A stretch of 16,238 nucleotides of DNA from Gemmatimonadota bacterium (GCA_040389905.1 JAZJZK010000057.1:1-16238); one strand, 5' to 3'; shown: positions 5,934-15,801, counted from the first letter of the stretch. Notes: generated by a model from the letters alone, not told the origin. Program-made: numbers and translations.

Positions 5934-6703
5934 ACCTTACGCTCAAGGTGTGGCGCCAGTCGGGTCCGAACAGTGCGGGCACGCTCACGGAGTACGCCGC
6001 GACCGACGTCAGTCCGGAGATGTCTTTTCTGGAGATGCTCGATGTCGTGAATGAACGGCTGATCGAGCAGGGAGAGGTGCCGATCGCGTTCGATCACGAT
6101 TGTCGCGAAGGAATTTGCGGATCGTGCGGCATGATGATCAACGGCGTCGCGCACGGGCCGATGAAGGCGACGGCGACGTGCCAGCTCCACATGCGCAGCT
6201 TCACGGATGGCGACACCGTCGTGATCGAGCCGTGGCGCGCGCGCGCGTTTCCGGTGATCAAGGATCTCGTCGTCGACCGCGGTGCGCTCGATCGCATCAT
6301 CCAGGCGGGCGGCTACATCTCGGTGTCCACCGGTGGGGCGAAGGACGGGAACACGATTCCCATTCCGAAAACGGATGCGGATTCGTCGATGGACGCCGCG
6401 GCGTGCATCGGTTGCGGGGCGTGTGTCGCGGCGTGTCCCAATGCGTCGGCGTCATTGTTTACCGGCGCCAAGATCTCGCATCTCGGACTCCTGCCGCAGG
6501 GGCAACCGGAGCGTTACCGGCGCGCGCTCAGGATGGTGGCGCAGATGGATCTCGAGAGCTTCGGGGGGTGCACGTTGTTCGGAGAGTGCCAGGAGGCGTG
6601 CCCGAAGGAGATCAGCATCGACGTGATCTCGCGGATGAACCGCGACTACATGTTTGCGGCGGTGTCGGCGGTCGACGAGCCGGTCGGAGGAGCGGACGGA
6701 TGA
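5930..6703 (+). CDS. sdhB: Succinate dehydrogenase/fumarate reductase iron-sulfur subunit, 257 aa
   Basis: GTG 5930 (GTGA overlap with the sdhA stop) gives [10 protein letters not shown]. Cluster motifs: CREGICGSC [2Fe-2S], [12 protein letters not shown] and [12 protein letters not shown]. Confidence 0.95.
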
Positions 6704-6860
6704 TGTACGGGTCTAACGCGGTTCTGCCGGGCAGCGCGCCCTTGCGTTCATCGGTATCGGCGGCGTAAGATGGCGACATCGCTGATGTGAGCCCTTCAGC
6801 ACCGTTGCCTTTGCACGAAGCAATCGCAATTTCTCGCCGCCGGACACTGCAAATCCCATC

Positions 6861-9455
6861 ATGAGAGTGCGCAGTGCTTCTGCACTGGCGGTCGTGCTGT
6901 GTATGGGTGCCGGCGTCCGTGCGCATCCGCAGGGCATTACGATCCGCAACGGGAACACGATGCGCGCCGTCGTTGTCGCGGGTGACCGGATCGCAATCCC
7001 CATCACGGTTGATTTCAGCGGCTACACGAGCGTGGGCGTCACCGGACTCACGACGGGAGTCACTTGGGATCCCGCTCGACTGGGTTTTGATTCGGCAAAA
7101 GCTGGCGGGTTGTACATCTCGGTCAACGGTACGGCGGCAGCGACGGGATCGCTCTCGATCTCGATGAATTCCGCATACTTCACGGAGACCTCCATACTCG
7201 CGACGGTCTACTTCACCGCGAAGAGCAGTGGTGGAGGAACGCGAGTGTCGCTCTCGCCGACCGTCGCGTTCGACAAGAACTACAAGAATATCCTTCCCGA
7301 CGCGCGAGTGCAGTCGCTCGATGTTTGCGTGGGAAAGCGCACGCTTTGGGGCGATGCGAACGCTGACCACGCCATTACGATCGTTGACGCGCAGCAGATT
7401 GCGCGCTTCAGCGTGGGTCTTGCTGTTTTGGACTCCATTGCCGTCGCCGATCAGGGCGACGTCACGGCAGATGGATACGTCAGCATCATCGATGCGCAGC
7501 AGATCGCCCGGTACAGCGTGTCGCTGAGTGCGGCTCAACGTGTGAACACGCCCGGCGTGGTCACACCACTAGTGACCCGCGTCGAGCTCGATCGCACATC
7601 GCTCGTCATAGGCGTGAATGCATTCAGCCAGCTGTTGGTCACGCCGAGAGGCCAAGGGGGCGTCGCGCTGTACGGTTGCCATCCCGTTGCGTGGAACTCG
7701 AGCGTCGCGAGTGTGGCACGAGTCGACTCGACTGGGCGAGTGTCAGGTACAGTCACCGGCTCTACCACTGTGTCCGCGACCGTTGAAGGCGTAGTGGCTG
7801 GCTCGGCCGTCGCGGTTTCGGAAATGCCGGCACCGATCACGCTGGTTTCCGGCGGCGATCAGGTTCAAGCTTCCAATGTGCGATTCATCGAACCGATCGT
7901 TGTATCGGTGAAGGACGCGCAAAATCGCGCGGTGCAGGGAGCCCGCGTCATTTTCGCCGTGACGGGGGGCGGCGGCAAGCTTCCGACATTCAACCCGGAT
8001 GTCGCAACAACGGACGTAAACGGAAACGCGTCCGTGGTCTGGCAGCCAGGTTTCGAGACTACGCATACCCTCGCGGCAACGGTCAGCGGCTTGCCCGATC
8101 TTGCCATCTCGGCTCGAACAGCGCGCGACGCCGGCGTATTCAACTGCGCGCTGTCAGCCGCGGAAGCGGCGTACTGCTGGGGCCCGTTGCGGACGGGGGC
8201 CTTGTACGTGCCGACACCCGTTGGGGGCGGCATGACCTTCCGTTCGCTCGCCGCCGGCGCAGGTGGGCACAGGTGCGCGCCAAGTCCAGTTGGTCACGCA
8301 TACTGCTGGGGGGCAAATGACTACGGACAACTCGGCGACGGAACGACGATCGACCGCGACACGCCGGTTGCGGTCGTCGGTGGGCACACGTTCGTACAGC
8401 TGAGTGTCTCTGCCAACGCTACCTGCGGGCTCTCATCGAGCGGAGCTCTGTCCTGCTGGGGCAGCGAGGGCTACGGTCTGTTCGGCGATGGCAAGCGCGG
8501 CGGCATTCGCTCCACGGCCACCGCGGTCAACACCGGAGACGTGTCATTCGTTTCGATGTCGATCAGTAGTGCGACATACTGCGGGCTCTCGACGACACAA
8601 CGGGTTTACTGCTGGGGTCACGGCGAATACGGCCAGGTGGGAGATGGCGCACTTCTGAATCGTGCCACCCCGACGCCGATTGCGGGATCGCGATCATACA
8701 TCGCGGTATCGACGGGCGCCGTTTCCAGTTGCGCGCTCGACGTGACGGGCAAGGCCTTCTGCTGGGGTGCGAACCTCATCACGTTCGAAGGCACGTCGAC
8801 GGGAAGGTTCGATGCGCCACTCGCGCTTCCCGGGGACCTGACCTTTGCGTCTATCGCGTCTGGAAATGACGGGAACGGTTGCGCACTGACGCTGGAGGGA
8901 CGGGCGTATTGTTGGGGGTTGGCTGGGGGAGGTTCGGTTGGCGACGGAACGCGGGAATCACGTCGCGCGCCTACGCGCGTTCTCGGTGACCTGACATTCA
9001 CCTCGCTCTCCATCGGCGACGGAACCACCTGCGCGAGAGCGACCAGTGGACACCCGTACTGCTGGGGTAACAGCCTCGAGGGACAGGTGGGAGACGGATC
9101 AGGGGCAACTCGATCAGTGCCGACGGCAGTGAACTGGATGGAAGGGCAGGTCGGTGTCCCCGTTTCGGTGACGGCGGCGGGCACCAGCAACTGGGGCTAC
9201 GCTGGCAAGGCCATTGGCGAGCCACCCTCAGTGACCATTCGCGACTATACGGGTGCGCCTGTGAGTGGAGTGACCGTGGTTTTCGCGGCCATCGCCGGGA
9301 GCGGGACTGTGACGGGCGGCACCGCTGTTTCCAATGCGAAGGGAATCGCGACTGCGGGTGGCTGGGTCCTTGGCCTGCCGGGCGAGAACAAAGTCATTGT
9401 TACCGCGCCCTCGCTACCGGGATTCGTGCTCTCCGCGCACGCGTATTCGCCGTGA
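6861..9455 (+). CDS. Secreted modular protein 1: signal peptide, cohesin-like, dockerin, Big_2-like Ig, Big_1-like Ig, 7 RCC1/BLIP-II-like repeats, C-terminal Ig-like domain (864 aa)
   Basis: Hydrophobic N-terminus. Cohesin-like pattern GDRIAIPITVD..VTWDPARLGFDS..GSLSIS..LATVYFTAK (~6960-7325). Dockerin WGDANADHAITIVDAQQIARF..GDVTADGYVSIIDAQQIARY (~7347-7526). WNSSVASVARVDSTGRVSG (Big_2). Seven C-x(n)-CWG repeats (~8140-9135). Confidence 0.85.
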   Translation: MRVRSASALAVVLCMGAGVRAHPQGITIRNGNTMRAVVVAGDRIAIPITVDFSGYTSVGVTGLTTGVTWDPARLGFDSAKAGGLYISVNGTAAATGSLSISMNSAYFTETSILATVYFTAKSSGGGTRVSLSPTVAFDKNYKNILPDARVQSLDVCVGKRTLWGDANADHAITIVDAQQIARFSVGLAVLDSIAVADQGDVTADGYVSIIDAQQIARYSVSLSAAQRVNTPGVVTPLVTRVELDRTSLVIGVNAFSQLLVTPRGQGGVALYGCHPVAWNSSVASVARVDSTGRVSGTVTGSTTVSATVEGVVAGSAVAVSEMPAPITLVSGGDQVQASNVRFIEPIVVSVKDAQNRAVQGARVIFAVTGGGGKLPTFNPDVATTDVNGNASVVWQPGFETTHTLAATVSGLPDLAISARTARDAGVFNCALSAAEAAYCWGPLRTGALYVPTPVGGGMTFRSLAAGAGGHRCAPSPVGHAYCWGANDYGQLGDGTTIDRDTPVAVVGGHTFVQLSVSANATCGLSSSGALSCWGSEGYGLFGDGKRGGIRSTATAVNTGDVSFVSMSISSATYCGLSTTQRVYCWGHGEYGQVGDGALLNRATPTPIAGSRSYIAVSTGAVSSCALDVTGKAFCWGANLITFEGTSTGRFDAPLALPGDLTFASIASGNDGNGCALTLEGRAYCWGLAGGGSVGDGTRESRRAPTRVLGDLTFTSLSIGDGTTCARATSGHPYCWGNSLEGQVGDGSGATRSVPTAVNWMEGQVGVPVSVTAAGTSNWGYAGKAIGEPPSVTIRDYTGAPVSGVTVVFAAIAGSGTVTGGTAVSNAKGIATAGGWVLGLPGENKVIVTAPSLPGFVLSAHAYSP

Positions 9456-11821
9456 ACGCGCCCTGGGGAAAAACAGCCTACGTCACACTAGGGATGTTGG
9501 CGCAGGTGCGGGCCTCTGTGGGTGTCGCTTTGCTCAGCGCATGCCTGAGCGCGTTTGGTCTGAGCGCCCAGGTCGTCACCCTGCGAGCGGGGGCGACGGT
9601 CGCGAAACACGTCGTACCTGGAACCAGGCTGGCTGTGCCGATTGTCGTGGACCTGAGTGCGGGCGCCGGAACCAGCGTGCGTTCGCTCCAGATGCGCGTG
9701 AGCTGGGCGACAGCACGACTCACCTTTGATTCCGTGAGGTCGTCGTCATTCGGTGTGTTGACGTCCAGCGCCGCCGACGTCGCGAGCGGGTCGCTGTCGC
9801 TCTCGAGCGCGGCATCGTCCGGCACGACGACGACGGCGGAGGTTGCGACGCTCTACTTCACTGCAAACACGACGGCGGGTACCGGCGGCACCCGCATACT
9901 GCTGACTCCTATCGCGGTCGACAACGATCTTGGTGCGAGCGTGGTAACGAGACTCAGGCTGCAGCATTTGGAAGTGTGCGTTGCGCCCGGCGTGCTGTGG
10001 GGCGACTCGAACAGCGACAATGTCGTCAACATCATCGACGCGCAGCAGATCGCACGCCACTCGGTCGGATTGTCGGTGGCAAACGAGACGGCGTTAGCCG
10101 CTCAGGGTGACGTGACCGAGGATGGCACGGTGAACGTCGTCGATGCACAGCAGATCGCGCGCTACACGGTGGCACTCAGCGCCGTTCCACGCGTGGGTGT
10201 TGCTTTTCCGATTGTGCCGGCGGTGAACGCGCTGTTCGTCAATCCGCTTGATGCCAGCGTATACGTGGGGTCGGCGACGCAGCTTCTCGCTGAGCCACGA
10301 GATGCGTCGAACAATGCGCTCAATGGTTGCCAGCCCGTGTCGTTCTCGTCGGGCGCGCCGACCATTGCGTCCGTCGATTCTGCAGGTCGCGTCTTTGGTC
10401 TGACGAGCGGTATTGCGACGATCACTGCGGCATCCGGGTCGAAAACAACCACGTCGTCGATCTACGTTGGACCTCCCGATGCCGCGAAATATCAGGCGAT
10501 CGCTTCCGTCAACTTTGCGTACCTGGCGGTCACAAACTACGAGCCGAGCGCGTTCATGCACGTTGCTGCCGACGCACTGACGTCCAATTTCAGCAATTTC
10601 GGAATGCGCTTCAGCAACCTCGAACCTCGTATTGCGTACGCCAACAACTCGGCTGGTAGCGATCGCGGAGTCACGGAAGCTCCCTGGGACAGCTATTATC
10701 AGGCGCTTCGTGGCGCCAACGACGCCATACAGGCATTCGACGCCGGGGTCGTGCCGAGTGGGGGGGTCGCTGAAGCAGGGAAGTACCGTCGTCTCGCCCA
10801 GATGTCGCAGGCATGGATGCTGTCGCAGCTCGCGTTGACGTTCGATCAGGCACTGATCATGGACGAAAACACGGTCACGGGCGCTGCGCAAACGCCGCTT
10901 TCGGCGTATCGCGACGTGGCGGCGAGCGCGGTGGCGAAATGGACAGCGCTCGCGGATGCCGAGGCGGGAAAGACGGACACGTATGAGCCGTCCGTATTCC
11001 CACTGGTGGTCGGTCCCCTTACCTCCGCACGAATCCAACGGTTCGCCAACACGATGGCTGCGCTCACGCTCGCCTACGCACCGCGCAACGCGGCAGAGGC
11101 GAGCGCGGTCAACTGGGCGCAAGTACGCGATCTGGCTGCGCGGGGCATTGGAAGCGGCCTCGCGGGTACCCCTTTCGACATGGACGTCATCGGGGACTTC
11201 AACAATTGGTATTCGAGTATCGTCGAAATCGGCGCCGCGCCCAGTTGGTTGCGCGTCGACCTACGGTTGATCAACCGCATGGATCCGGGGACGCCATTGC
11301 GCATGACGTCGACAACGCCACCTCCACGAGGATCGTCAGTCGACGCTCGTTTCGATACGGACTACGCCTATCTCACACCGATCCCGGGAGATCCAGGACG
11401 CGGCGTCTACATGTTGAGCCCGTACTATCACACGCGATACTACGCGCACGGTCTCGAGTCGCCAACCTTCAAGCAGACGCCGGTACCGTTTCTCCTCGCG
11501 GCCGAGAGCGATCTCGTGCGGGCGGAAGCGATCATACGAACGAATGGTGATTTCGCAACCGCAGCAACGCTGATCAATCTGACGCGCGTCGGCAGAGGAC
11601 ACCTCGCGCCGGCATCGGCCAGTGACGGAGCGACGACGCTTCTCGCATACATCGACTATGAGCGGGACGTCGAGCTTCTGAACACAAATGGATACACACT
11701 ATTCCAGCGTCGTCACGTCGATGGTCTTCAGCCTTTTACGCCGGTGCAGCTTCCCGTTCCGGCAAGAGTCCTCGAATCGCGCGGGCTACCGGTCTATACG
11801 TTCGGCGGCCCTGGTGGATAG
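9452..11821 (+). CDS. Secreted modular protein 2: signal peptide, cohesin-like, dockerin, Big_2-like Ig, RagB/SusD-like domain
   Basis: Same N-terminal module as protein 1 (dockerin ~9998-10177). C-terminal ~440 aa has SusD-like patterns: WDSYYQALRGANDAI, LLAAESDLVRAEA...AATLINLTRVGR, IDYERDVEL, LPVP. Start uncertain: GTG 9452 (overlaps the upstream stop), ATG 9494 or GTG 9506. Confidence 0.8.
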   Translation: MNAPWGKTAYVTLGMLAQVRASVGVALLSACLSAFGLSAQVVTLRAGATVAKHVVPGTRLAVPIVVDLSAGAGTSVRSLQMRVSWATARLTFDSVRSSSFGVLTSSAADVASGSLSLSSAASSGTTTTAEVATLYFTANTTAGTGGTRILLTPIAVDNDLGASVVTRLRLQHLEVCVAPGVLWGDSNSDNVVNIIDAQQIARHSVGLSVANETALAAQGDVTEDGTVNVVDAQQIARYTVALSAVPRVGVAFPIVPAVNALFVNPLDASVYVGSATQLLAEPRDASNNALNGCQPVSFSSGAPTIASVDSAGRVFGLTSGIATITAASGSKTTTSSIYVGPPDAAKYQAIASVNFAYLAVTNYEPSAFMHVAADALTSNFSNFGMRFSNLEPRIAYANNSAGSDRGVTEAPWDSYYQALRGANDAIQAFDAGVVPSGGVAEAGKYRRLAQMSQAWMLSQLALTFDQALIMDENTVTGAAQTPLSAYRDVAASAVAKWTALADAEAGKTDTYEPSVFPLVVGPLTSARIQRFANTMAALTLAYAPRNAAEASAVNWAQVRDLAARGIGSGLAGTPFDMDVIGDFNNWYSSIVEIGAAPSWLRVDLRLINRMDPGTPLRMTSTTPPPRGSSVDARFDTDYAYLTPIPGDPGRGVYMLSPYYHTRYYAHGLESPTFKQTPVPFLLAAESDLVRAEAIIRTNGDFATAATLINLTRVGRGHLAPASASDGATTLLAYIDYERDVELLNTNGYTLFQRRHVDGLQPFTPVQLPVPARVLESRGLPVYTFGGPGG

Positions 11822-12640
11822 CGAACGAAATCGACGCGGTCCCGAATCCGCAGCCCACTGTTCGCGTCGCTGGCAACAACAACCCACGCGTGACGCAGGT
11901 CCCCGTGACGTTTGCCGTCGAGAGCGGTCGTGGGTCGATTGCGGGCGCGTCGCCTGTCACTGACAACGCCGGTCGTGCCGACGGTCGGCACCTGGCAACT
12001 TGGTGCGTCATCGGGCACGAACACGCTCACGGCGACCGCAACAGGGTTGCACTGCTCGCCTGTCACATTCACGGCCCGGCGACGACTTCGGCCGCGCCGC
12101 TGGCGTATGAGCGGCTCATGGCGGGATATCTCTCTATAACTGCGGTGTCTCAGGCTCCGCGACGTATTGCTGGGGAGACAATAGCTACGGTCAGATTGGC
12201 GATGGCACGAGGACTCTCCGTGGTCGGCCCGTGGCCATCAGCACGTCGCTCGAGCAGCTGGCCGTGGGAGGCGCGCAAGGTTGCGGGCTCGATAGCGCCG
12301 GTGCCGTGTATTGCTGGGGAAATAATCAGAATGCGGGATCCACACCCACGCTCTTCGCAACTGGTGGCACCTTCGATAGCATTTACGTCGCGCTCAATCA
12401 CACCTGTGGTTTTCGCGCGGGAGCAGCATTGGTGACGGAACCCAGGTGACGCGCTTGTTCCCAGTCGCGGTGTCCACCAACCTGACATTCAAGTCGCTGA
12501 CATCCGGCCACTCCCATACGTGCGGGCTCAAGACCGACGGCGTCGCTTATTGCTGGGGTGAGAATAACCAGGCTCAACTTGGAACTGGCGTAGCGGGGGC
12601 GGCCGAGCTCAGCCCACTTCGTGTGCGTGGCCCAATCGTC
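11822..12640 (+). pseudogene. Frameshifted remnant of an Ig-like + RCC1-repeat C-terminal region, paralogous to protein 3
   Basis: Colinear fragments in changing frames: QPTVRV..VPVTFAVESGRGSIAG / TVGTWQLGASSGTNTLTATATG / AAPLAYERLMAGY / YNCGVSGSATYCWGDNSYGQIGDGT..VYCWG..HTCGF / IGDGTQVTRLFPVAVSTNLTFKSLTSGHSHTCGLKTDGVAYCWGENN. Frame changes near 11980, 12075, 12135 and 12428. No signal peptide, cohesin or dockerin. Confidence 0.85.
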
Positions 12641-12799
12641 CCTCAATTCAGTATTGGCAGTTCTTACCAACGTTCGCTACCTTTTGTATGCAGTTGCGCT
12701 GCAGTAGGAGCGCACGTACGGAGTCGCGCTGAGAGGGCCGCGCAAGCTTCTTGCCGCCTGATCGACTCGATTCATTGTGCAACACCGGCACGACGACGT

Positions 12800-12827
12800 T
12801 TCGGTTGGTCCACCTTGAACGAGTAGC
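12800..12827 (+). repeat. 5' leader duplicated upstream of protein 3 and of the remnant at 15903 (copy 1)
   Basis: TTCGGTTGGTCCACCTTGAACGAGTAGC matches 15872-15899 at 22/28 positions by manual ungapped alignment; both end 3-4 nt before an ATG. Confidence 0.7.
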
Positions 12828-12831
12828 GAAA

Positions 12832-15801
12832 ATGAAAGTCTCGCGCGCGGCCGCATGTCTTGCGGGCATGTCCCTCCTCGCCGCACCGAGCCTGCGGGCG
12901 CAGGGAACCATCGTCGTCCGCGGCTCCGCTGGCACCGCCATTCAAGTGGCGCCGGGTACCGTGCTGACGGTGCCCATCGTGGTCGACATGACTGCAGCGG
13001 GTGGGTTGAACCTCGCATCGCTCGCGAGCGCGATGTCGTGGGGGCTGACGCGCCTCACCCTCGACTCCGTCAAGGCGGCTGCGCTTGGAACTGTGATTCC
13101 GAACATGTCGCAAGCCACGAACGGGAGTGCGAGCGTCGCGATTTACGACGTGACCGGCACGACGACGACTGTTACCGCCGCCAATTTCTATTTCACGGCC
13201 CTCGCGGCCGGTTCCACGAAGATCGCCTTGTTGCCGAGCGTCGCCGGCTCCGACGCGGGAACGAATCTGCTCCAGCGCATCCGCGTGCGTGATATCCCGG
13301 TGTGCGTAGTGAATCCAGCGCTCTGGGGCGATGTCAACGACGACTTCGTCGTCAACGTGATCGATGCGCAGCAAGTGGCGCGCTCCAGCGTTGGGCTCAG
13401 CGTTTCGAACCCCTCCGCTGTTGCTGCTCGAGGTGACGTCAATAATGACGGTGCCGCCAACGTGATCGACGCACAGCAGTTGGCGCGCTACAGCGTCAGC
13501 CTCCCGGCCGTTGCACGGATCGGTACGTCGAACGCCACGCCCGCGACCGTCGCGAACCTGACGGTGTCCGCCGTCCTCGACGCCGAGGCTGGCGGCGTCA
13601 ACCCTGATGTGCCCGCGAATACGAGTGCGTTGGCCGTGGGCAAGCAGGCGCAGATTCAGGCGCTGGCGCGTGACGGTGGCAGTGTCGACGTCACCTCGTG
13701 TGCGGCGCTGACCTATTCATCGAACAGTCCCGGCGTTGCGACTGTCTCGAGCACTGGGCTCATTCAGGCAGTTGGTGCCGGGTCCGCGACGATTACCGTC
13801 GGTGCCGGTGGGCCGACCGCCACGGTGAATGTCACGGTGCCGGCCACCGGGACGCAGCTGGCCGTCACGACGCAGCCGACAGGTGCCGCCTCTGGGGTGA
13901 ACCTGCTCTCGCAGCCCGTCGTGCAGGTGCGCGACGGCTCCAATGCGGTGGTCACTGGTGCGACCAACCCCGTTACGGCAACCCTCGTCGGCTCGGGTGG
14001 GACGCTGGGGGGCACGACGACCGTGTCGGCCGTCAACGGTGTCGCGACGTTCACCAACCTCAGCGTCACCGGGCCCGGCACCTATCAACTCACGTTCTCC
14101 GCACCGACGCTGACGTCCGCGACGTCGTCCAGCTTTACGATCGGGGCCGCGCCCGGTGCACCGACGAAACTCGCGGTCAGCACGGCTCCGTCGTCTACGG
14201 CAGCTTCGCGCGTGGCGTTCCCTCAACAGCCGGTGATTCAGGTACAGGATGCGAACGGCACGCTCGTGCCCGGCGCCGGTGTCGTGGTGACGGCGTCCCT
14301 TTCCGCTGGTGCGGGCTCATTGAGCGGCTCCCTCACGGCAACGACGAATTCGAGCGGTGTTGCGACGTTCACGACGCTGTCGATTGGCGGTCCCGTTGGC
14401 GCCAAATCCATCACGTTCTCCGCGAGCGGCCTGACGCAAGTCGTGTCGAACGTGACGCTCACGGCCGGAGCAGCGACGACCATCGCGATCAACGGCGGCG
14501 ACAATCAGACGGCTCTCCCATCACAGGGAGTCGGAATCGCGCCGTCCGTCAAGATCACTGATGCCGACGGCAACAACGTTGCGGGAACGTCGGTGACCTT
14601 CGCCGTTGCCAGCGGTGGCGGTACCGTCACGGGAACTCCGGCAAGCAGCAACAGCTCGGGAGTGGCGACGGTCGGCTCGTGGACGCTCGGTTCGTCGAAC
14701 GGTACGAACACGCTCACAGCTTCCGCGAGTGGCATCGGCTCCGTGACGTTCACCGCCACTGCGTCGCCATCGGCCGTGCTCGCATTCCAGTCGCTCGACG
14801 CGTCGTACTACAACGTGTGCGGACTCTCGTCCGGCAAGGTCTACTGCTGGGGTAGAAGCGAGTACGGTCAGATTGGCGACGGAACCAACACCATGCGTCC
14901 GCGACCGACCCAGCTTTCCGGTAGCTATACCGCCTACGGGGTCGGCTACGTTTCCGCATGCGCGACCACAGTGTCTGACGTGTATTGCTGGGGAGGATCG
15001 TACGCGACATCACCCACGCTCAAAACCGGATTCGGTGCGTTCATCAGCGTGGCGGCCAGCAACGCCGGAAACGGCTGCGGCCTGAAATCGGGAGGGGTCG
15101 CCTACTGTTGGGGAACGAACTACCAAGGCCAAGTCGGTGATGGCACGAGCCAGGTCCGAGCGACTCCCGTTCTGGTCAGCGGTGGTTTGACCTTCCAGAG
15201 CCTCACGCTCGGTCTTGACTATGCGTGCGGATTGACCACAGCAGGGGACGCCTATTGCTGGGGAGTGAATCGGTACGGCGAGCTCGGACGAGGCGGTGGC
15301 GGGAGCTCGCCCGTAGGGAGCAATGTGCCTACGCTGGTCGTCGGGGGGCGCACTTTTACGCAAATCACGGCGGGTGACAGTCACACATGTGGCCTCACCA
15401 CGGCGGGTCAGGCGTTCTGTTGGGGGTTGAACGTCAGCGGGCAGCTTGGCATCGGCACCAACATCGACGCGACCTCGCCAACTCTGGTTTCTGGCTCGCT
15501 CACGTTCAGCTCGCTCGCGGCGGGGAGCAACCACACCTGTGGTATCAGCGGCGCGACCACCTATTGCTGGGGCCAGAACGCACGTGGCCAACTCGGCGAC
15601 GGCACGCAGACATCCAGGTCATTTCCAGTTGCGGTTTCGACCGCGCTCACCTTCACCTCACTCACAGGCGGACTCGGGCATACGTGTGCGTTGACGTCGA
15701 GTGGAGCCGCCTATTGCTGGGGTGAGAACAACGGTGGCGAACTCGGCAAAGGTGCGAACGGCGCCGCGCTCCTGACTCCCCAGGCTGTCGTCGCCCCGTG
15801 A
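12832..15801 (+). CDS. Secreted modular protein 3: signal peptide, cohesin-like, dockerin, Big_2-like Ig, three further Ig-like domains, C-terminal 7-bladed RCC1/BLIP-II-like propeller (989 aa)
   Basis: ATG 12832 gives MKVSRAAACLAGMSLLAAPSLRA|Q. Dockerin WGDVNDDFVVNVIDAQQVARS..GDVNNDGAANVIDAQQLARY (~13324-13503). YSSNSPGVATVSSTGLI (Big_2). Two LAVxTxP..QPVxQVxD..GVATFxxLS repeats and one Big_1-like domain. Seven (Y/F)CWG repeats (~14780-15798). Confidence 0.88.
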   Translation: MKVSRAAACLAGMSLLAAPSLRAQGTIVVRGSAGTAIQVAPGTVLTVPIVVDMTAAGGLNLASLASAMSWGLTRLTLDSVKAAALGTVIPNMSQATNGSASVAIYDVTGTTTTVTAANFYFTALAAGSTKIALLPSVAGSDAGTNLLQRIRVRDIPVCVVNPALWGDVNDDFVVNVIDAQQVARSSVGLSVSNPSAVAARGDVNNDGAANVIDAQQLARYSVSLPAVARIGTSNATPATVANLTVSAVLDAEAGGVNPDVPANTSALAVGKQAQIQALARDGGSVDVTSCAALTYSSNSPGVATVSSTGLIQAVGAGSATITVGAGGPTATVNVTVPATGTQLAVTTQPTGAASGVNLLSQPVVQVRDGSNAVVTGATNPVTATLVGSGGTLGGTTTVSAVNGVATFTNLSVTGPGTYQLTFSAPTLTSATSSSFTIGAAPGAPTKLAVSTAPSSTAASRVAFPQQPVIQVQDANGTLVPGAGVVVTASLSAGAGSLSGSLTATTNSSGVATFTTLSIGGPVGAKSITFSASGLTQVVSNVTLTAGAATTIAINGGDNQTALPSQGVGIAPSVKITDADGNNVAGTSVTFAVASGGGTVTGTPASSNSSGVATVGSWTLGSSNGTNTLTASASGIGSVTFTATASPSAVLAFQSLDASYYNVCGLSSGKVYCWGRSEYGQIGDGTNTMRPRPTQLSGSYTAYGVGYVSACATTVSDVYCWGGSYATSPTLKTGFGAFISVAASNAGNGCGLKSGGVAYCWGTNYQGQVGDGTSQVRATPVLVSGGLTFQSLTLGLDYACGLTTAGDAYCWGVNRYGELGRGGGGSSPVGSNVPTLVVGGRTFTQITAGDSHTCGLTTAGQAFCWGLNVSGQLGIGTNIDATSPTLVSGSLTFSSLAAGSNHTCGISGATTYCWGQNARGQLGDGTQTSRSFPVAVSTALTFTSLTGGLGHTCALTSSGAAYCWGENNGGELGKGANGAALLTPQAVVAP

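Follow-up and report, generated by a model that had tools for sequence, protein, structure and literature searches.

SusD proteins are treated as obligate lipoprotein lids of SusC, and adjacency of susC and susD is used to predict utilization loci. Here we describe a domain with a predicted SusD fold that forms the end of a 789-amino-acid (aa) protein, behind a cohesin domain, a dockerin and an immunoglobulin (Ig)-like domain (together called the head below). The gene lies at 9452..11821 on the plus strand of a 16,238-base contig from a Gemmatimonadota bacterium (GCA_040389905.1, JAZJZK010000057.1:1-16238). This contig (C57) was analyzed at its full length and is referred to as the window; the genome it belongs to is 5.08 Mb and 85% complete. 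The dockerin-SusD fusion is a real, recurrent and apparently undescribed variant.

The closest described proteins are the SusD/RagB lids (BT1762-63, SusCD, RagAB), which have the same fold. According to the available parts of two accounts, the N-terminal segment of SusD in solved SusCD complexes wraps the barrel and provides both a pivot and a lasting attachment to SusC (PMC7782687; 10.64898/2026.09.16.752182), with residues 25-43 of SusD burying about 1200 Å2 (10.64898/2026.09.16.752182). SusD and SusC both contribute to the ligand site of BT1762-63. The window domain appears to derive from a susD that lies behind a susC in the same genome. Unlike the described lids, it is without a lipid-bearing Cys, a tether or an adjacent susC, and it is the last domain of a multi-domain protein that is predicted to be secreted. 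In Bacteroides utilisomes, as described in the available part of one report, SusD cooperates at the surface with additional binding proteins and with enzymes (PMC7618045). Those assemblies are SusC-based and made of lipoproteins of one locus, whereas the window SusD has left SusC for a separate scaffold.

The scaffold also has described counterparts. The amylosome of Ruminococcus bromii, in the accessible part of its description, contains Sas20, a binding protein without catalytic activity that attaches through its dockerin to an anchoring scaffoldin, and Amy4, an enzyme with both a cohesin and a dockerin (PMC9112005). The window protein resembles Sas20 as a non-catalytic dockerin subunit and Amy4 in combining cohesin and dockerin in one chain. 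The amylosome, however, is Gram-positive and sortase-anchored and has starch-binding domains unrelated to SusD, whereas the window system is diderm, has predicted lipoprotein anchors, and opens every subunit with a cohesin-dockerin pair. Cohesin-dockerin assemblies with peptidase or glycoside hydrolase (GH) cargo have been predicted in diderm aquatic bacteria, namely the 'planctosome' of Planctomycetes (PMC6461901) and the complex of Ca. Stygibacter, Cloacimonadota (PMC8542988). These belong to other phyla and have other anchors, and SusD cargo is not mentioned in the available portions of either account. We found no description of a dockerin-SusD protein, of another multi-domain SusD fusion or of such heads in Gemmatimonadota in the full-text literature (subscription papers were outside the scope), and the accessible parts of PMC7480376, PMC7260996 and 10.1101/2025.11.13.688124 mention no such SusD fusion or Gemmatimonadota heads. 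Database architectures may list such fusions without comment.

A predicted SusD fold behind a cohesin-dockerin-Ig head

The original prediction, made from this sequence alone, was that a SusD-like domain is fused behind a cohesin-dockerin-Ig module, with a switch in fold near 10490. This was borne out by the Pfam domains of the head, a profile of 146 relatives, an AlphaFold2 model and Foldseek comparisons, and the junction was found at residues 341-345 (about 10472-10486), where the prediction had put it (10470-10500). The protein begins with a probable Sec signal peptide (residues 1-39, 9452..9568), with cleavage likely between GLSA and Q as in paralogues; A or G followed by Q stands at the start of 54 of 85 heads. 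The cohesin domain (about residues 40-178, 9569..9985) matches PF00963 over the cut-off at residues 56-159. The head model has a predicted local distance difference test score (pLDDT) of 96, and its best Foldseek matches are cellulosomal cohesins, with target-normalised template modeling (TM) scores of 0.74-0.83. The dockerin (10001..10165) matches PF00404 over the cut-off at residues 184-238 (E 4.7e-07); both of its calcium-loop repeats were located, and it has three helices in the model. It is followed by a Big_2 Ig-like spacer (10238..10474; PF02368 over the cut-off at residues 263-330) that is all-beta in the model, and then by the SusD-fold domain (10475..11818), which starts at helix 1 and was assigned from the profile, the model, Foldseek and the tree. 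All of these features are on the plus strand.

Models from Pfam and NCBIfam gave no match to residues 345-789. The stand-alone SusD that is the apparent parent of the domain (encoded on contig C12, see below) is likewise without a Pfam SusD match, and one relative, P0123, narrowly passes PF07980. A single-sequence search of PDB with the SusD part reached only E 0.25, and the profile of 146 relatives matched 23 PDB sequences, mostly named SusD or SusD-like (best E 1.6e-11). The AlphaFold2 model of the SusD part has a pLDDT of 97.3 and a predicted TM score of 0.95. The Foldseek search that had been suggested for residues ~345-789 gave SusD-family proteins or SusCD complexes in all 40 rows shown; the best match was BT1762 (E 1.4e-10, TM 0.64), and TM scores reached 0.68 among these rows. 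Feature matches in the ESM Atlas were SusD/RagB clusters. Residues 345-789 are predicted to be a complete SusD fold, alpha-helical and containing TPRs. With this fold, the 789-aa protein nevertheless lacks four defining features of a SusD/RagB lid: a Pfam SusD match, a lipoprotein signal with a lipidated Cys directly before the domain (341 head residues are there instead), the SusC-wrapping tether, and a gene position after susC. Because Pfam misses this SusD subfamily, annotation pipelines would overlook the fusions. As predicted, there was no SusC gene in the window, which is the entire contig; 13 full-length SusC-like genes are present elsewhere in the genome.

The original prediction had also raised the possibility of a chimeric assembly. 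An independently assembled contig from sequencing run X1 covers 6593-13000 with 0 differences, 0 gaps and no joint at the junction, and it spans the single open frame of the gene unchanged. This is a contig rather than raw reads, and it may derive from the source sample; X1 is the only run that holds the stretch, and runs X2 and X3 contain next to none of it; no RNA data set was listed for it, a result with no bearing on expression. In DNA, the SusD half shares only ~70% identity with the nearest copy in the genome and therefore is not a mis-joined piece of that locus, and the same architecture occurs in two other proteins (P0131 and P0223) and two other loci (L062 and L078). The probability of a chimera is negligible, and the cohesin-dockerin-Ig-SusD fusion is real.

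Origin of the fused domain

The search for the closest stand-alone susD and its susC, which the original prediction had recommended, led to another contig of the same genome. A 542-aa SusD lipoprotein encoded at G000:C12:88496-90124, directly after a SusC gene that scores over the TIGR04056 cut-off, is 70% identical to the fused domain. The two are sisters, with support of 100/98 in a 39-row IQ-TREE tree and 0.966 in a 149-row FastTree tree, and their DNA is 69-70% identical. The pairwise ratio of nonsynonymous to synonymous change (dN/dS) is 0.13 (dN 0.22, dS about 1.6), a crude estimate near saturation. The fusion opens at helix 1, so that the first 41 residues of the parent, with signal, Cys and tether, have been dropped. 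The proposal that SusD was recruited as cargo on a cohesin-dockerin module is supported by a nearest relative in the genome's own susD and by at least five independent captures, described below.

Two more fusions in the same genome lie in tandem on contig C5 (1999 and 1956 aa; L001:1136-7135 and L001:7358-13228). They consist of a head, Ig domains, three RCC1 propellers and SusD, and about 1,450 residues stand in the place of the tether. Their SusD parts are 75% identical to each other, with a dN/dS of 0.15, and are sister to a second susD of the genome, also on C12 (support 100/100). Both donor susCD pairs are within 32 kb on C12 (L118, L119; G000:C12:84000-123800), and several genomes of the genus also have two matches to this SusD family within a few kb of each other. 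The neighbors of the donor locus encode FG-GAP/ASPIC, TPR, GDSL-TPR and DUF4397 proteins. Among 55 genomes of the genus, long fused frames were found only in this one; 35 of the 54 others carry this SusD family at E 1e-20, in frames of <800 aa that run mostly from a lipoprotein start.

Directly behind the stop codon of the fused gene is a frameshifted remnant of a Big_1 domain and RCC1 propeller (11822..12660, plus strand; E 4e-33, frames 1-2-1, 68% DNA identity over 244 bases). It is colinear with residues 638-950 of the product of the next gene, in its second half, and is probably cargo displaced by the SusD module. On the simplest reading, SusD entered an older head-Ig-RCC1 gene and severed its tail.

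SusD domains without a tether recur on different carriers

We surveyed homologues with a HMMER search of representatives and took the best 150 of 660, among which 20 proteins bear the SusD domain inside a larger chain. A word-based search set to longer proteins returned only the 789-aa protein itself, which is weak evidence; HMMER did find other fusions. In all, 261 SusD units were collected, of which 235 are stand-alone and 26 are fused domains that we examined. P0131 and P0223 have the exact layout of the window protein. P0258 has dockerin-like motifs by eye, and Pfam gave Big_2 only. There were also SusD domains without a tether on other carriers. P0134, P0141, P0165, P0197, P0262 and P0267 have a type IX secretion system (T9SS) sorting domain with one or two such domains (three of the six hold two copies), and some of them have SprB, Fib_succ_major or BNR repeats. 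In P0130, P0168, P0193, P0228, P0234, P0254 and P0255, most of which have lipoprotein-like starts, the domain sits at the tip of an Ig stalk or of another N-terminal part, or follows a TolB-like propeller.

A separate survey of the heads covered 96 distinct proteins in 86 loci, 63 of them with the 3' end. It yielded one further fusion of this SusD family, in L062 (Longimicrobiales), and an incomplete second sighting in L105. Most of the loci that share the cohesin-dockerin head (42 of 46) are named for Gemmatimonadota taxa. In L078 (1-5854), the gene order is that of the window, a head-RCC1 gene followed by a head-Ig-SusD gene, behind an open reading frame (ORF) with a cohesin tip. The cargo in this slot is probably a different, unrelated SusD family: its assignment comes from homology (E 2e-51) to the ORF after SusC on contig C55, and it has no similarity to the window SusD domain and no PDB match. 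The dockerin-SusD architecture that the original prediction proposed to look for in other sequences is therefore present in P0131, P0223 and L062, and in L078 with what is probably another SusD family. No susC was found in the 86 head loci or beside the three fusions of this genome.

The fusions do not trace to a single event. A single clade of the seven dockerin-SusD proteins was rejected in an approximately unbiased (AU) test (p-AU 1e-91), as was joining the window protein with P0131 (p-AU 1e-06). Well-supported branches of the 39-row IQ-TREE tree force at least five changes, which we read as gains of the fusion because 235 of the 261 SusD units are stand-alone. Dockerin-SusD fusions would then have at least five independent origins and, by reading of the tree, still five without P0258.

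What the fused domains have lost and kept

In 86 diverse stand-alone proteins, the tether residues C21, L25, N29, N31 and P33 are 85-100% conserved. The tether motif before helix 1 is missing from all 26 fused domains (P0223 retains the last few residues), and the fusion point is identical in all of them. The window domain keeps 151 of the 169 columns that are highly conserved in close relatives, and 18 of its 20 residues at 385-404 are identical to the parent. By an approximate mapping, this stretch falls within the part of the domain whose profile alignment covers the BT1762 ligand residues D67 and W85. The barrel-facing loops of the parent lid are largely kept. By the crude estimate given above, the SusD domain is under purifying selection.

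One position has changed repeatedly. The window protein has Val773 (11768..11770, plus strand) where stand-alone relatives have Glu in a PAKEL motif, and a like change recurs in other fused copies. Glu is present in 65 of 83 stand-alone proteins, and V, I or T in 20 of 26 fused domains. Over 16 sister pairs there were 11 losses and 1 gain of Glu773, in a post hoc comparison. The shift toward V or I (18 of 26 fused domains vs 2 of 83 stand-alone) is the stronger sign.

Candidate scaffold and export route

The dockerin motifs of the 13 head proteins in this genome are nearly identical, and the cargoes carried comprise RCC1 propellers, Ig arrays, InlB-B repeats, a GH17-like domain, an M8 peptidase and SusD. 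The only enzyme-type cargo recognized is the one GH17-like domain and the one M8 peptidase, and the set is not a cellulosome proper, which would have many dockerin-bearing cellulases or hemicellulases. Two predicted lipoproteins have cohesins and no dockerin, G000:C41:782-8869 (= L010:782-8869; 2695 aa, 3 cohesins) and G000:C13:25985-37702 (3905 aa, 1 cohesin), and from their sequences they would be cell-anchored cohesin scaffoldins. Next to the gene for the C41 lipoprotein are a short ORF resembling a cohesin and the gene of a head protein that bears an M8 peptidase. Lipoproteins with a cohesin tip are found beside heads in many other loci, and in L062 directly before the SusD fusion.

We modeled the complex of an anchor cohesin with the 789-aa head. 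It scored 0.33, compared to 0.00 for the best control, a mark reached by 116 of 157 solved pairs and 2 of 215 mismatched pairs; 18 of the solved pairs and both mismatches were at ≤0.60. Runs agreed in ≥97% of contacts, and the partners had a pLDDT of ≥86. The pass may come from resemblance to cohesin-dockerin pairs of known structure, and the model hints, weakly, that the dockerin could bind the anchor cohesin in trans. The window protein itself has a lipobox-like LSAC motif (residues 28-31, 9533-9544), of a kind found in only 3 of 85 heads; if the motif is used, the 789-aa protein would itself be lipid-anchored.

For export, the genome has a type II secretion system (T2SS) cluster and a SprA/Sov gene (L115:475-6654, G000:C9) over the TIGR04189 cut-off. 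PorV was not found in this 85%-complete genome. A search of the genome for T9SS tails had no match and was uninformative, as the controls gave none either.

Possible functions of the scaffold-borne SusD

The explanation we lean toward, and consider somewhat probable, is that the protein is exported and displayed via its dockerin on lipid-anchored cohesin proteins, where SusD would bind ligand as a head that works without SusC. By this account, one susD of the lineage would have been duplicated and spliced in at helix 1, losing signal, lipid Cys and tether, a direction suggested by the tree. The earlier Ig/RCC1 tail would have been cut off and would since have decayed behind the new stop, and the domain appears to have been maintained by selection. 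The protein would cross the outer membrane by the T2SS or an SprA-type route. Its dockerin, replacing the lipid as the way to the surface, would bind the cohesin of a lipoprotein anchor or of another head. The result would be a mixed surface assembly with RCC1 propellers, the GH17-like domain and the M8 peptidase, in which the SusD pocket would bind the same kind of ligand as the parent lid and hold it near the cell.

Several observations weigh against this explanation. Because the ligand site of BT1762-63 is shared with SusC, a lone SusD may bind weakly, and a non-binding SusD is on record in the available part of one paper (PMC9599597). Since ligand and SusC meet the same side of SusD, conservation there cannot separate a free head from SusC docking. 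There was no recognized carbohydrate-active enzyme among 13 ORFs scanned around the donor locus and most head cargoes are not enzymes, so 'nutrient capture' is not established. The fusion was found in 1 of the 55 genus genomes, which are incomplete. The fused branch is longer than the parent branch (0.36 vs 0.10, IQ-TREE), and across the 16 sister pairs 274 losses of consensus residues stand against 184 gains, an excess of losses that indicates a somewhat relaxed constraint on fused copies. The change at Glu773 (p 0.006) fails correction for 135 columns. A pairing of Glu773 with a tether Arg was not established, with a covariation p of 0.11 for 86 diverse rows and 0.0007 for all 143 related rows.

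The original prediction had offered a free capture head and a SusC adaptor as alternative functions. The free head fits better, with the tether missing from 26 of 26 fused domains and no susC near the fused genes whose surroundings were covered, and the adaptor is weakened. As an adaptor or alternative lid, the fused SusD would dock on its cognate C12 SusC, transiently or in place of the lipoprotein lid, hand over ligand, and tie the assembly to the transporter. The 70% identity to the cognate lid and the largely kept barrel-facing loops are consistent with this; each fusion here is closest to a susD whose susC persists, as a partner-specific adaptor would need, and extra surface proteins assemble on SusCD in utilisomes, according to the available part of PMC7618045. 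However, what holds SusD on the barrel is gone from every fused domain examined, and an Ig domain, or about 1,450 residues in the C5 fusions, stands there instead; an intact native lid is encoded together with susC, neither the 86 head loci nor the three fusions have a susC, and some related proteins have tandem SusD domains and a T9SS tail. We regard the adaptor as unlikely, and give it weight because ligand and barrel faces coincide and the parent susC of each fusion is present. It seems more doubtful that the protein belongs to a surface coat or adhesive structure in which SusD, as one more recognition module, would not gather food but bind to other cells, to particles, or to SusCD-targeting phages and toxins. 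The C-terminal cargo of most heads is an RCC1, Kelch or WD40 propeller, an Ig stalk, InlB-B repeats or a lectin-like domain rather than an enzyme, and the quick turnover of cargo, the decayed tail behind the gene and the patchy distribution would suit such a role. Against it, M8 peptidase, GH17-like and alpha/beta-hydrolase cargoes occur too, and the surface loops of the parent are strongly conserved, which fits a specific small ligand.

It is very unlikely that the fusion came about by chance in a gene family that recombines rapidly, and that its product folds but has no function. Its presence in 1 of 55 genus genomes, its faster evolution after fusion and the decaying neighbors of a locus that churns would be expected of such an event, but the dN/dS is 0.13 at a dS of about 1.6 (0.15 between the C5 fusions) while the adjoining tail gained frameshifts, and the same fusion point in 26 of 26 cases and the recurrent change at Glu773 also argue against it. 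We find it scarcely credible that the protein stays inside the outer membrane, with SusD acting as a binding protein of the periplasm on a scaffold of lipoproteins that face inward. The only signal visible is of the Sec type and no PorV was found in the 85%-complete genome; on the other hand, the size of the heads (up to 3,160 aa), their long Ig stalks and their peptidase or glycosidase cargoes suit a surface location, the genome has T2SS and SprA genes, and equivalent SusD domains are carried on T9SS cargo in other lineages.

In these natural fusions, selection appears to have preserved the lid despite the loss of its anchor, its tether and its partner gene, on at least five occasions on cohesin-dockerin heads and further times on other carriers. 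The fusions serve as natural experiments on what SusD does in the absence of SusC, which in vitro studies of the isolated protein left unclear, and they connect two separate ways of capture at the surface, the cellulosome-type scaffold and SusCD transport, in a phylum that has been little studied. Because parent and fused copy occur in one genome at 70% identity, a direct side-by-side test would be easy. A broader idea, which we think improbable but put forward tentatively, is that SusD lids are a reusable module that has repeatedly been freed of its tether in Gemmatimonadota and other Fibrobacteres-Chlorobi-Bacteroidetes (FCB) lineages and mounted on cohesin-dockerin scaffolds, Ig stalks and T9SS cargo. 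In its boldest form, a scaffold-borne copy would load ligand away from the membrane and close briefly on its cognate SusC for hand-over, plugging a cellulosome-like assembly into a TonB-dependent importer.

Gene neighborhood

The first 6.7 kb of the window is filled by housekeeping genes (HU, moaD/E/A, mdh, sdhCAB). These are followed by three large genes on the plus strand, each opening with a cohesin-dockerin-Ig head by Pfam. The first encodes an 864-aa paralogue with the order cohesin-dockerin-Ig-RCC1-Ig (6861..9455), and its stop codon is overlapped by the GTG start of the SusD fusion gene, which is the second. The third (12751..15801) encodes a cohesin-dockerin head with an Ig stalk and RCC1, and its true start is probably an ATG near 12832. 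Between this gene and the end of the contig (15851-16238), there are Ig-like and RCC1-like fragments in different frames, possibly another decayed paralogue.

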